Positions 1,612 through 5,488 of a DNA stretch of 64,000 bases are shown piece by piece. Numbering within the stretch: the first letter of the stretch is position 1; the number at the start of each line of letters is the position of its first letter. The stretch spans positions 23,681 to 87,680 of the forward strand of contig JADHLI010000008.1 of NCBI GenBank assembly GCA_016780775.1, written 5' to 3'. This DNA comes from Alphaproteobacteria bacterium. GTDB taxonomy: Bacteria > Pseudomonadota > Alphaproteobacteria > Puniceispirillales > Puniceispirillaceae. Made by a program: the position numbers and the translations under genes. Below the pieces are notes generated by a model, which saw only the letters and a list, made by a program, of their open reading frames with translations, had not been told where the DNA came from and did no database searches.

Positions 1612-1721
1612 AGTAACCATTTTGTGAACAGCAAAGTCGTATTGAGCATAAAGCCTGTCGACATTCAGCCATAAACCTTGCTATTAACACGTTCATTGTA
1701 AATTGTTCGGTTTGCCATTTG

Positions 1722-1892
1722 GCAATTAAAACGGGAAGTTTGGTGCGGAGGTGGTTAATTTTAAAACCCCCTCTAATTCCAACACTGTCCTCGCAACTGT
1801 AAGCAGAGAGCGTTCGCACATATAGTCACTGTCTTTATGAATGGGAAGACGTGCGCACGCAATGACCTGCAAGTCAGGAGACCTGCCGAATA
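1722..1892 (+). promoter_or_regulatory. cobalamin (B12) riboswitch aptamer
   Basis: Conserved cores appear in the expected order: ACGGGAAG..GGTG (1731-1748), CTGTCCTCGCAACTGTAAGC (about 1785-1804), GTCACTG...GGGAAG (1825-1848), and the B12 box AAGTCAGGAGACCTGCC (1871-1887). It lies directly upstream of a TonB-dependent receptor gene. Confidence 0.8.
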
Positions 1893-1969
1893 AGCACCCT
1901 AGTCGGACCACGAGGTATGGTCAGGACGGCGGACAGATTTCCGTGATGGTGAATTTATACACCGTCGCA

Positions 1970-2004
1970 GGAAGTCCCTTCCTCGACAAATATATTGAGG
2001 GAGG
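1970..2004 (+). promoter_or_regulatory. riboswitch expression platform: alternative hairpins around the RBS
   Basis: CCTTCCTC (1977-1984) can pair with the RBS GAGGGAGG (1997-2004; 8 bp including one G-U). The overlapping CTTCC (1978-1982) can instead pair with GGAAG (1970-1974). The ATG is at 2010. Confidence 0.5.
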
Positions 2005-2009
2005 CATAA

Positions 2010-3929
2010 ATGCGCAAACCGCATCTTATCCTAACAACACTTAGCCTGTGCGCCGCATCGGCTAGCTTCATCGTGCCTGCATTGGCACAAGACAGCACAA
2101 CTACGCAAAGCACAAGCGAGCGTCCTATCGTCTATCCATCCGCGTCGATTGCCAATTTCCAGCCCCTGCCGCTAAATGAAGTTCTGCTAAGCGCAGATGT
2201 GGTCACCTCCGATGAAATTGAGCGTTCTACCGCTTCTAGCGTCAGCGAGCTTATCGCGCAAAAAACAGGTATTGAATTTTCCCGAAATGGCGGGCCTGGT
2301 GCGGTAACGTCGCATTTCCTGCGGGGTCAGAAAAGCGCTAACTATGTGTTAATGATCGATGGTATACGCGTTCATGGGGATACTTACGGCAATGTGATTA
2401 CCCCTGAATTAGCGATTGCTCAGATTGAAAAGATTGAGATTTTACGGGGCAATGCCTCTGCCCTCTATGGTGAGGCCGCGGTAGGCGGGGTCATTAACAT
2501 CATCACCAAATCTGGCAATTTACGCGATAGCGGCTTTATTTCCACAAAATATGGGAGCTATGATACGGCAGAGGCCAGCGCTGGCGTTTCAAAATATGTT
2601 AATGGCTTTAACTTGTCTTTTGTTGGCACTAAATTTGAGACCGAAGGGTTTGATGTGCGCTCAGATAGCGCCACAAATCCAGATAAGGATGGGTATAGCC
2701 AAGATAGCTATAATTTCACCCTATCGAGGCGCCTATCCCCAGCCGCCAACATCACCATCGGCCTCAGGAACCGCGAAAGTGAGGGGGATTATGATGATAC
2801 CGTCCCAAGCGGAACTTCAGACACCAGCACCCATGAGCATAATACCGAAAATCAGGAAAGTTTTATCACCTATGAGTTGGAGAAAGGCGCGGCGATAAAT
2901 CTGCGCCTTGACTACAATCAAGCAGAGCGCACCCGCAAAGATTTCATCAATGGCGCGCCAGCAAAAACAGCTGTTTCATGGAAAAACAATGTTATTGAGG
3001 GCAACAGTAAAACGCTAAAACTGGTGAACATATCGCATTTGCAAGGGGATGTTGTGCGCCATAGCATCACCCAAGGGATAGAGCTTATTGACGCTTATTA
3101 TGACAGCGATGGCAGCCGGTCTGAGCGCGATACTGAAGCTGTTTTTGCGGGCTATGGGGCTAAATTTGGCGCGCATGATGTGCAGGCTAATTTGCGCCGT
3201 GATAAGGTGAGTTTAAAAACCACAAGCAATATAAAGGCAGATATGAAGGAAACTTCGTACCTCGCGGGATATGGGTATCGTTTTGCTGAGCATTATAAAA
3301 TAGCCCTTAGCCATGCCACAGGCTTTCGTGCCCCATCCGCAGGTGAATATGGAAGCAATCAAGATCTAAAACCTGAAACCTACACCTCCAATGAGGTATC
3401 CCTGCAACGAGATAAGGATGGTCGCTTGCTGCGCCTTACCGCCTTTGTAACAGAAACTGACAATGAAATTAAATGGCTAAGCGTTTCGCCATGGACACCT
3501 GAAAATATCCAAAAAAATGAAAATACAGGCCTTGAAGTGAACTATAGTGGCAGCACAGAAAACTTTGATTTTGATCTAGATATCACGCTTCAAGACCCAA
3601 AGGAGACCGACACCACCACTGCTTCTGGCGGGCAATCCCTGAAGCGGGCAAAGGCCTATGGTAAATTGAACCTGTCACGCCAGCTAGGCGATTATCAAAT
3701 TGGCAGCACCCTAACCTATTCCGGTCGCAAATTAGATTCTGGCGGCAAAACTATTGCTAGCTTTACCCGCCTTGACGGCTATGTTTCGCGCCAGCTAGGG
3801 GATAATTTGTCGGTAAATCTAAAGGCTGAAAATATTACCAACAGCGAATATGAGACGACTGCAGGATATAGAACGCCGGAACGTAGCCTGTTTTTGACGT
3901 TAAAATATGATTTCGTTAACGACATGTAG
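2010..3929 (+). CDS. btuB: TonB-dependent outer-membrane receptor, probable cobalamin receptor
   Basis: 639-aa ORF with a signal peptide (LCAASASFIVPALAQD) and plug-domain motifs (IEILRGNASALYGEAAVGGVINIITK). It has a beta-barrel-like C-terminus ending LTLKYDF-VNDM. The B12 assignment rests on the upstream riboswitch. Confidence 0.75.
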   Translation: MRKPHLILTTLSLCAASASFIVPALAQDSTTTQSTSERPIVYPSASIANFQPLPLNEVLLSADVVTSDEIERSTASSVSELIAQKTGIEFSRNGGPGAVTSHFLRGQKSANYVLMIDGIRVHGDTYGNVITPELAIAQIEKIEILRGNASALYGEAAVGGVINIITKSGNLRDSGFISTKYGSYDTAEASAGVSKYVNGFNLSFVGTKFETEGFDVRSDSATNPDKDGYSQDSYNFTLSRRLSPAANITIGLRNRESEGDYDDTVPSGTSDTSTHEHNTENQESFITYELEKGAAINLRLDYNQAERTRKDFINGAPAKTAVSWKNNVIEGNSKTLKLVNISHLQGDVVRHSITQGIELIDAYYDSDGSRSERDTEAVFAGYGAKFGAHDVQANLRRDKVSLKTTSNIKADMKETSYLAGYGYRFAEHYKIALSHATGFRAPSAGEYGSNQDLKPETYTSNEVSLQRDKDGRLLRLTAFVTETDNEIKWLSVSPWTPENIQKNENTGLEVNYSGSTENFDFDLDITLQDPKETDTTTASGGQSLKRAKAYGKLNLSRQLGDYQIGSTLTYSGRKLDSGGKTIASFTRLDGYVSRQLGDNLSVNLKAENITNSEYETTAGYRTPERSLFLTLKYDFVNDM

Positions 3930-4048
3930 AGGTATAATTATGCCTTGTAAATAAGGCTGGTTTTATCTTGCAGGCAGGGCTTAACCAAATTAATATCAAG
4001 CCAAATTCGAACAGACCGTAAGACTAAAAGCGAAAAAGGGACAAGGTC

Positions 4049-4570
4049 ATGAAAAATAGCAAAACAATGCTGGTATCTTTTACATCCTTGGTAGCATTTT
4101 TGGTATTGGCGCGGGTTATTCCGCACCCACCAAATTTCTCCCCTGTGTTAGGCATGGCTATTTTCGCCCCATTCTTATTTCGGGATCTGTTTGTGGCTAT
4201 TGCCCTTCCCCTAGCGGCTATGGTGGTCTCTAACTTGATATTGGGCTTTCACAGCTCTATGTTCTGGGTGTTTTTATCTATCGCGCTTATTACTTGCGGG
4301 GCGCATTGGGCAAAGATGTATGCCCCGACCCTGATGAAAACAGCTGGCATGGTAGTCGCTGGTACTTTCAGCTTCTTTATCATAACTAATTTTGCGGTTT
4401 GGGCGATGGGTGGGCTTTACCCGATGACGCTTGAAGGGTTGATAGCCTGTTATATTGCGGCCATTCCTTTTTACGGCAACACCTTGCTAAGCACCGCATT
4501 ATTTTCTGCTTTGTTCTTTGGTATTGCAAAATGGGTGGATCAGAATAATCTGCTAGCCGCCGATAGATAA
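4049..4570 (+). CDS. small polytopic membrane protein (DUF6580-like putative transport protein)
   Basis: 173 aa with about 5-6 hydrophobic helices. The N-terminal motif RVIPHPPNFSPVLGMAIF is one I recall as typical of the DUF6580 putative transporter family. It is on the same strand as the receptor gene, 119 nt downstream. Confidence 0.55.
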   Translation: MKNSKTMLVSFTSLVAFLVLARVIPHPPNFSPVLGMAIFAPFLFRDLFVAIALPLAAMVVSNLILGFHSSMFWVFLSIALITCGAHWAKMYAPTLMKTAGMVVAGTFSFFIITNFAVWAMGGLYPMTLEGLIACYIAAIPFYGNTLLSTALFSALFFGIAKWVDQNNLLAADR

Positions 4571-4591
4571 AGCTGGTTTTTTCGCCAGCTT
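4570..4591 (+). terminator. stem-loop after the membrane protein gene
   Basis: AAGCTGG (4570-4576) / CCAGCTT (4585-4591) form a 7-bp stem with a T-rich loop. There is no clean 3' U-tract. Confidence 0.3.
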
Positions 4592-4609
4592 GTCTTTACG
4601 ACAACCATT

Positions 4610-5488
4610 ATGGGACAACAGCAAAAGACATTATTTATTTTTGGTCTAGGCTATGTTGGCCTGCATCTAGCTCAGCAATTGTCCAATAAGGGCTGGCAGA
4701 TTATTGCCACAACACGTTCTCCAGAAAAGGTTAAGGGTAATTTAGGCTGGCAGATCCTACCCTTCACAGATACAGCGCCAATAGATAATCTTGCCAGCCA
4801 TCTGGCGCGCGCAACCCATCTCATTTCAACAATTGGCCCAGTTGCGGGGCAGGACCCCGTGATAGCCGCGCATAAACAGCAATTGCAGGCCTTTAGCGGT
4901 TGGACAGGTTATTTATCTGCAACCTCTGTCTATCCAGATATGCCGGAGGGCTGGGTGGATGAAGACACACCGCCAAACCCCGCCACAGCGCGGGGCAAGA
5001 CCCGCCTTGCAGCAGAGCAAGCATGGCAAGAGGCTTGCGGGGCAGAAATTTTCCGTATCGCTGGTATTTACGGACCCGGACGCAATGTATTTAAAAGCTT
5101 ATATGAAGGCAGCGCGCGTATCATTGATAAGCCTGGTCATTTATTTAATCGCATCCACCAGAGTGATATTAGCCAGATAATCATTGCCGCCATACACACA
5201 CCAGAAGCAAGGCGTATTTTAAACCTTGCAGATATGCATCCCGCATCACAAGTAGATGTTGTTCGTTTTGCCGCTAGCCTTGCTGGTATTACCCCGCCAG
5301 AGCCAATACCCCTAGAGCAGGCAAATTTATCGGAAATGGGGCGTAGCTTTTATGATTCTCAGCGCAAGATACGCTCAAAAATTCTAGGCCAGACACTTAA
5401 ATATAGCTTTCGCTATCCAGATTATAAAGCCGGGCTACACGCCCTGTTTAAAGCAGGCGACCAATCAGATAGCCAGCCAGCCCAATAG
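4610..5488 (+). CDS. NAD(P)-binding SDR/epimerase-family protein
   Basis: 292 aa with an N-terminal Rossmann motif LFIFGLGYVGLHLAQQL. Overall layout is that of an atypical SDR. Confidence 0.65.
   Translation: MGQQQKTLFIFGLGYVGLHLAQQLSNKGWQIIATTRSPEKVKGNLGWQILPFTDTAPIDNLASHLARATHLISTIGPVAGQDPVIAAHKQQLQAFSGWTGYLSATSVYPDMPEGWVDEDTPPNPATARGKTRLAAEQAWQEACGAEIFRIAGIYGPGRNVFKSLYEGSARIIDKPGHLFNRIHQSDISQIIIAAIHTPEARRILNLADMHPASQVDVVRFAASLAGITPPEPIPLEQANLSEMGRSFYDSQRKIRSKILGQTLKYSFRYPDYKAGLHALFKAGDQSDSQPAQ

Follow-up and report, generated by a model that had tools for sequence, protein, structure and literature searches.

The locus described here raises the question of how a cobamide crosses the inner membrane of a bacterium that encodes a cobalamin riboswitch and a BtuB-like outer-membrane receptor, with none of btuF, btuC and btuD beside btuB. 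The locus is located in a stretch of 64,000 nucleotides (hereafter the window) from an Alphaproteobacteria bacterium of the Puniceispirillaceae (assembly GCA_016780775.1, contig JADHLI010000008.1, positions 23,681–87,680 of the forward strand). The gene that follows btuB encodes a membrane protein of the DUF6580 family. According to our analyses, the locus serves B12 acquisition in a marine SAR116 bacterium that is auxotrophic for B12. The DUF6580 protein is probably a stand-alone inner-membrane cobamide importer that resembles the S-components of energy-coupling factor (ECF) transporters, and it would act like BtuM while standing outside the BtuM family. This reading, which is drawn from sequence comparison and a structural model, is based on the predicted fold, the replacement of btuFCD in its chromosomal slot, the restriction to auxotrophs among the relatives and the recurrent B12 contexts. 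The same points support a preliminary description of this DNA, in which the small protein was put forward as a candidate corrinoid transporter. The elements on which the argument depends are as follows.

1691–1904, + strand: cobalamin riboswitch aptamer, RF00174 (Rfam covariance match).
1905–2009, + strand: expression platform (RNA fold and sequence reading).
2010–3929, + strand: BtuB-like TonB-dependent outer-membrane receptor, 639 amino acids (Plug and TonB-dependent barrel domains).
4049–4570, + strand: DUF6580 protein, 173 amino acids, with six predicted transmembrane helices; candidate inner-membrane cobamide importer (PF20221).

The 173-residue open reading frame matches Pfam PF20221 with 138.8 bits (cut-off 27; E = 2.5e-40), residues 5–165 being aligned to positions 4–157 of the 162-position profile. 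The motif PHPPNFSP is located at residues 25–32. These results establish the membership in DUF6580 that had been suggested from the motif. Some members are named 'DUF6580 family putative transport protein' by NCBI. A search of the searchable papers found no description of the DUF6580/PF20221 family, in agreement with the earlier remark that the family is uncharacterized. DUF6580 is a real, constrained gene; the ratio of nonsynonymous to synonymous substitution rates (dN/dS) is about 0.05 against congeners, which indicates strong purifying selection. In one 473-residue protein (P0201), a DUF6580 domain is followed by a weak cytochrome c' tail.

Upstream of the receptor, the Rfam model RF00174 matches positions 1691–1904 (+) along its entire length (1–189 of 189), with a score of 108.2 bits against a gathering threshold of 31.5 (E = 3.7e-26). 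The B12 riboswitch noticed there previously is thus genuine, and the start given for it, 1722, is located 31 nucleotides inside the aptamer. The window contains no other Rfam match, and the genome no other cobalamin riboswitch.

The genome (2.21 Mb, 99.56% complete) belongs to a marine SAR116 bacterium (Puniceispirillaceae). Database proteins that share at least 90% identity with the aldolase encoded in the window carry the name Candidatus Puniceispirillaceae. CbiC, CobS, MetE, CobA/BtuR and EcfT (PF02361, CbiQ/EcfT) were not found in searches of this genome. Methylmalonyl-CoA mutase, a PduO-type adenosyltransferase and a cluster of corrinoid-protein, pterin-methyltransferase, MTHFR-like and RACo genes are present. 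The organism is a B12 auxotroph that uses B12. Because the markers of corrin synthesis were not found while B12 enzymes are present, the cell must import complete cobamides. BtuC was not found genome-wide, and the only FecCD-like match is ZnuB (27.5 bits against FecCD, 228 bits against ABC-3), which is encoded in a znuACB cluster. Thus, the lack of BtuCDF that had been pointed out for the neighborhood extends to the whole genome. A full-length MetH is not evident in the genome. The corrinoid-protein cluster (G000:C25; L006:5815-11038) encodes a 232-residue corrinoid protein, an MTHFR-like protein, a pterin-binding methyltransferase and a RACo reductive activator, and may be the main B12-dependent methyl-transfer system of the cell.

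The locus was compared among 61 genomes of the same order, in which the window's own family is designated f1. DUF6580 is present in 24 of the 61 genomes. In 17 of these, the usually single cobalamin riboswitch of the genome is located on the same strand, less than 2.7 kb upstream of DUF6580. Six more, all of genus g15, have the order riboswitch-btuB-tonB with DUF6580 adjacent and convergent on the other strand, and the locus of the last one is interrupted by a contig end. A genome of the same family (G035) shows the order riboswitch-btuB-btuF-btuC (FecCD, 281 bits)-btuD-SDR-(FBA)(FBPase). The order in the window is riboswitch-btuB-DUF6580-SDR-(FBA)(FBPase), with the same flanks. DUF6580 thus occupies the btuFCD slot of G035 between the same flanking genes. 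Within family f1, FecCD is absent from every genome with DUF6580, and DUF6580 is absent from all seven genomes in which FecCD matches strongly. CbiC was not found in 23 of the 24 DUF6580 genomes and is present in 25 of the 37 genomes without DUF6580. These results indicate that DUF6580 tracks B12 auxotrophy among the relatives.

In the B12 producers, the riboswitch is located instead before cobW-cobN, CbtA (genus g14) or a CbiM-like gene. The last arrangement was observed at the same slot in two genomes of the window's genus (L031 in G006:C1 and L032 in G007:C16), where the riboswitch is followed by a solitary 252-residue CbiM-like protein (PF01891, 48.7 bits), and btuB, DUF6580 and SDR are missing from this locus variant. 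The CbiM-like protein gave no PDB sequence match. It was considered as a third B12 importer and rejected; since G006 has CbiC, a cobalt transporter is more likely. The content of the locus seems to switch with lifestyle, the CbiM-like form apparently serving cobalt uptake in genomes that make B12. In two other producers (L037 in G020 and L040 in G040), the riboswitch precedes a Znu-type ATP-binding cassette (ABC) transporter (ATPase, ABC-3 permease and ZnuA-like binding protein), which is presumably a cobalt importer. According to a SAR116 pangenome study of 2025, some subclades make cobalamin and others 'compensate with cobalamin transport' (PMC12262181).

The association with B12 is not confined to the order. 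Eighty DUF6580 loci (0.5 Mb in total) from named genomes of at least nine phyla were scanned with Rfam. The sample covered Alpha- and Gammaproteobacteria (Pelagibacteraceae and SAR86 included), Ignavibacteria, Bacteroidota, Planctomycetota, Verrucomicrobiota, Acidobacteriota, Elusimicrobia, SAR324 and Levybacteria of the candidate phyla radiation (CPR). The scan gave 37 cobalamin-clan riboswitch matches, or about one per 13 kb; in the genomes of the relatives, the frequency is about one per 2.3 Mb. The riboswitch density around DUF6580 genes is thus about 170-fold above that of the relatives' genomes. A riboswitch is located within 3.2 kb of DUF6580 at 35 of the 80 loci (upstream on the same strand at 24, divergent at six, convergent at three and just downstream at two). 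The recurrent neighbors are BtuB-like receptors (33 loci), PduO adenosyltransferase, the class II ribonucleotide reductase NrdJ, the DUF71 PP-loop ATPase, leaderless BtuF-like proteins, DUF5074 and DUF4430. Some B12-linked signal is present within 3.2 kb at 52 of the 80 loci. At two loci (L101, Chitinophagaceae; L114, Elusimicrobia), one cobalamin-class riboswitch precedes DUF6580 and a second precedes the next gene, a BtuB-like receptor. Two apparent fusions of DUF6580 with BtuF-like proteins (L087 and L110) were rejected, since the reading frames differ and the calls are overlapping open reading frames.

The AlphaFold2 model of the DUF6580 protein, calculated from a 45-sequence alignment, has six helices and a mean predicted local distance difference test (pLDDT) score of 91.4. 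In a structural search against 48,161 chains, the top 15 matches are all ECF S-components or the related CbiM/NikM-type substrate subunits (Z = 10.3–14.2). BtuM (8ovv_A) is tied for first place with Z = 14.2 and a root-mean-square deviation of 2.8 Å over 158 residues, and the next unrelated fold after the top 15 is MreD (Z = 8.6). The top ten Foldseek matches are also all S-components, with probabilities up to 0.99. From the model, we confidently predict the six-helix ECF S-component fold. The likeness to the solitary ECF-S-like BtuM, which had been drawn from protein size, thus extends to the predicted fold. Neither phmmer nor a 45-sequence profile search of the PDB sequences returned BtuM for DUF6580 at E-values up to 10. 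Membership in the BtuM family was therefore rejected on the basis of sequence, and only the fold is common to both. The sole PDB profile match is a 182-residue membrane chain of the ECF-CbrT entry 6FNP (E = 0.065, helices 1–3), which we infer from its size to be CbrT.

Residue conservation was analyzed with 150 family representatives, which have a median identity of 34% to the window protein. Fourteen residues are conserved at 96–99%: R22, P25, H26, N29, D62, G66, Y75, F109, N114, W118, Y124, G130, P140 and F141. The window protein carries 12 of them, the exceptions being N62 and F75. Lys and Arg residues are located at the N-terminus, in loops 2 and 4 and at the C-terminus, and both termini are predicted to be cytoplasmic by the positive-inside rule. 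Since the termini are placed in the cytoplasm, the R-x-x-PHPPNF loop, the GFH loop and the W...YP loop would be periplasmic, on the side where S-components bind substrate. Loop 1 contains R22, P25, H26 and N29, loop 3 contains G66, and the region of loop 5 contains W118 and Y124. H26 is conserved at 98%, and H68 (72%) and C134 in helix 6 (84%) fall short of the 96–99% range. DUF6580 has no invariant Cys; C134 is the sole conserved one and is replaced by Ser in two congeners (L017 and L020). The substitutions D62N and Y75F occur as a pair in the window's DUF6580 clade, which consists of five congeners (the window, L012, L016, L017 and L020). The two residues probably interact, and the paired change may mark an altered coupling or specificity.

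The known system closest to the proposed one is BtuM of Thiobacillus denitrificans (PDB 6FFV and 8OVV). Like the DUF6580 protein, BtuM is a six-helix protein of the inner membrane that has the S-component fold and a size of only about 20 kDa, occurs in Gram-negative hosts that have BtuB and lack both BtuCDF and an ECF module, and is co-localized with btuB. The two families differ in that no sequence similarity between them is detectable. The hallmark of BtuM is the invariant Cys80, which ligates the corrin cobalt (Rempel et al., 2018; PMC6072759), whereas, as judged from the conservation among the representatives, DUF6580 has only C134 and carries its signature R-x-x-P-H-P-P-N-F in loop 1. DUF6580 is also far wider, with 6,720 clusters at 50% identity against the 131 BtuM homologues reported in 2018 (PMC6072759). 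CbrT of Lactobacillus delbrueckii (PDB 6FNP) is a B12-specific S-component (PMC5997447), and the DUF6580 profile matches it below significance. Unlike the importer proposed here, CbrT requires the EcfAA'T module and is inactive alone (PMC5997447), and the model superposes on the incomplete chain 6fnp_E with a Z of only 7.6. The type II ABC importer BtuCDF of E. coli performs the same step as that proposed for DUF6580, from periplasm to cytoplasm downstream of BtuB. It consists of three proteins of unrelated architecture, is ATP-driven and uses a periplasmic binding protein. Solitary BioY shows that a protein with the S-component fold can move a vitamin unaided (PMC6072759; Z = 13.0 between the DUF6580 model and 4dve_A), although the substrate (biotin) and the family are different and most BioY proteins have an ECF module.

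Several points weigh against the importer reading. The searchable papers contain no binding or transport data for any DUF6580 member. The lack of a recognized inner-membrane B12 importer refers to a genome search for BtuC and EcfT, and a BtuM homologue may be encoded in addition. The 61 relatives share ancestry, so that the counts overstate independence, and the pattern corresponds to about four lineages (g1, g4, g15 and g16). In the cross-phylum sample, 28 of the 80 loci, such as those of SAR86, Leptospira and Bdellovibrionales, are without a B12 signal within 3.2 kb. As for the fold, the Foldseek E-values of the S-component matches are only 0.2 or weaker, and Z-scores near 14 can occur between helical bundles without homology. 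The window's clade has N62 and F75 at positions where 148 and 147 of the 150 representatives have Asp and Tyr, respectively. Finally, DUF6580 may not be under riboswitch control, as it is separated from btuB by a 119-nucleotide spacer with a conserved promoter-like block, and it is located on the strand opposite to riboswitch-btuB elsewhere (convergent in genus g15, divergent in Sphingomicrobium).

In view of these points, other roles were considered. The DUF6580 protein could be an accessory, either a corrinoid-handling protein (decyanase, reductase or chaperone) or a capture subunit with an unrecognized energizing partner. The behavior of solitary CbrT, an S-component that does not transport without its ECF module (PMC5997447), is in line with the latter, and the decyanase chemistry also present in BtuM (PMC6072759) with the former. 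A possible partner exists in this genome. On another contig, without a permease, a leaderless BtuF-like (Peripla_BP_2) protein overlaps the start of a DUF71 PP-loop ATPase (G000:C5:23323-24740; L131:4324-5768). The best PDB matches of the BtuF-like protein are the B12-binding proteins 5ysc and 1n2z, and a role in B12 salvage was predicted for DUF71 in 2012 (PMC3541065). Both families are encoded beside DUF6580 in planctomycete, verrucomicrobial, ignavibacterial and acidobacterial loci. The pair was nevertheless rejected as an obligate partner of DUF6580, since the two do not co-vary with it among the relatives: the pair was not found in g16 and g4, where DUF6580 is present, and is present in g11 together with btuFCD. 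It is plausible that the BtuF-like protein and the DUF71 ATPase are cytoplasmic acceptors and not required partners. No EcfT or BtuC was found here that could serve as a partner. Moreover, the slot taken by DUF6580 is that of the entire BtuFCD importer and not of a single subunit, and an accessory role would leave the auxotroph without an identified inner-membrane route for B12. For these reasons, we regard an accessory role as unlikely.

A different substrate related to B12, namely cobalt, cobinamide or a lower-ligand precursor (dimethylbenzimidazole or alpha-ribazole), is suggested by the fact that cobalamin riboswitches also control cobalt transporters. The CbiM-like gene at the same locus in G006 and G007 and CbtA in g14 are cases among the relatives, and the metal-specific CbiM and NikM substrate subunits have the same fold. 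Against this, cobalt, cobinamide or lower ligands would not be convertible to the cofactor in a genome where CbiC and CobS were not found. DUF6580 is nearly confined to genomes without CbiC, which is the opposite of what is expected of a cobalt transporter, and it occurs together with BtuB, PduO adenosyltransferase and NrdJ in different phyla. We therefore consider another substrate improbable. Still less probable, and in our view barely credible, is a housekeeping membrane protein unrelated to B12, whose adjacency to btuB would be an accident preserved by descent. The loci without B12 context, the possible independent promoter in the spacer and the opposite-strand arrangements are compatible with such a protein. 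It would leave unexplained the roughly 170-fold riboswitch density in at least nine phyla, the recurrence of seven B12-linked gene families as neighbors, and the alternation with btuFCD that tracks auxotrophy. Thus, import of cobamides by DUF6580 is the reading that we prefer.

The remaining question of the locus is how its genes are controlled. The distance between the end of the aptamer and the ATG of btuB (2010) is 105 nucleotides, and the BtuB-like gene lies downstream on the same strand. In this expression platform, a 10-base-pair hairpin (1977–1986/1995–2004) buries the Shine-Dalgarno sequence GAGGGAGG (1997–2004) ahead of the ATG. The RNA fold of 1900–2030 has an energy of -50.9 kcal/mol (z = -5.28), and none of 200 shuffles is as stable. 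Because the leader hairpin buries the Shine-Dalgarno sequence, btuB is likely to be controlled at translation. Translational control is usual for proteobacterial btuB leaders. The receptor itself has Plug and barrel domains, and its best NCBIfam match is TIGR01779 (TonB-B12) with 284.9 bits, which is under the equivalog cut-off of 599.7 and outscores the siderophore and heme receptor families. The 90% cluster of the receptor includes members named 'vitamin B12 transporter' by JGI. Because TIGR01779 scores below its cut-off and is yet the best-scoring family, the TonB-dependent receptor of the preliminary description is here designated BtuB-like, a label backed by the riboswitch context. At one locus of genus g16 (L049, G045:C5, 563–2613), the BtuB-like receptor upstream of DUF6580 is split into two open reading frames of 516 and 121 amino acids, which could be a frameshift, a sequencing error or a pseudogene.

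The features downstream of btuB are as follows.

3942–3957, + strand: weak terminator-like hairpin directly after btuB (-6.4 kcal/mol).
3958–3998, + strand: conserved intergenic block, possible internal promoter for DUF6580 (congener conservation).
4571–4592, + strand: hairpin after the DUF6580 stop codon, followed by TGTCTTT; possible terminator (-11.3 kcal/mol; region z = -3.0).
4610–5488, + strand: SDR/epimerase-like protein, 292 amino acids (weak RmlD_sub_bind and Epimerase matches).

The hairpin at 3942–3957 was considered as an internal terminator and rejected. It is weak, terminator-like sites here are no commoner than in shuffles, the structure is not conserved in congeners, and the 119-nucleotide spacer is not unusually structured (z = -0.76). 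A transcript end around 3943–3965, which had been envisaged as a sign that DUF6580 is expressed independently of B12, is thus unconvincing as judged from this weak and unconserved hairpin. The block at 3958–3998 (about 40 nucleotides) contains TTGCAG (3968–3973), a 17-nucleotide gap and TAATAT (3991–3996). It is near-identical in five genomes of the same genus, in which the adjacent coding sequence has a synonymous divergence (dS) of 1.2–1.9, with synonymous sites saturated. The two hexamers agree with the E. coli consensus at 7 of 12 positions, and the promoter scan did not call them. The block may be an internal promoter for DUF6580 or another regulatory site. Because of this promoter-like block and the opposite-strand arrangements elsewhere, the riboswitch may mainly throttle the receptor, and DUF6580 may be partly or wholly constitutive. 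The earlier statement that the riboswitch controls both the receptor and the small protein can therefore be maintained for btuB, through the predicted hairpin that sequesters its ribosome-binding site; direct control holds only for this gene, and the control of DUF6580 is uncertain.

The SDR/epimerase-like gene trails DUF6580 in all 11 loci of family f1 (the window and ten others) and in L050. It also trails btuFCD in G035 and is missing from the producer variant of G006 and G007. This gene travels with the B12 uptake genes.

The following mechanism would be consistent with the locus. When the intracellular cobamide is high, the aptamer would bind it, the hairpin would hide the ribosome-binding site of btuB, and less receptor would be made. 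The TonB-driven BtuB-like receptor would move cobamide into the periplasm, and the DUF6580 protein would then carry it over the inner membrane, with the near-invariant residues clustered at three predicted periplasmic loops and close to them. In this step, like solitary BtuM, it would dispense with a periplasmic binding protein, a BtuCD pump and an ECF energizing module. Directionality would probably come from capture in the cytoplasm by the PduO adenosyltransferase, the B12 enzymes and possibly the leaderless BtuF-like protein. Transcription of DUF6580 would start at the riboswitch-controlled promoter, at a promoter of its own or at the two together. We infer B12 binding and transport by DUF6580, its energization and the source of its transcription.

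Beyond this genome, we lean on balance toward the view that DUF6580 represents a novel family of solitary B12 importers with a very wide distribution. The family would extend over at least nine phyla (CPR, SAR11, SAR86 and SAR116 included) and would have the S-component fold while being unrelated to BtuM in sequence. H26, and not a Cys residue, would probably hold the corrin, and at one SAR116 locus the gene would alternate with btuFCD when the ability to make B12 is gained or lost in a lineage. Only about half of the B12 auxotrophs have a predicted BtuCDF (PMC6072759). Many B12-dependent bacteria have no recognized inner-membrane B12 transporter, and the exchange of B12 structures communities in the ocean and the gut. 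If the proposed function is correct, DUF6580 would close much of the recognized gap left by B12-dependent bacteria without BtuCDF. The locus is also a clean natural experiment, in which one family has, between the same flanks, either btuFCD or DUF6580, or a riboswitch-controlled gene similar to cobalt transporters in the producers. A small and widespread importer in SAR116, SAR11 and SAR86 would change how B12 auxotrophy and B12 uptake are scored from genomes and metagenomes.

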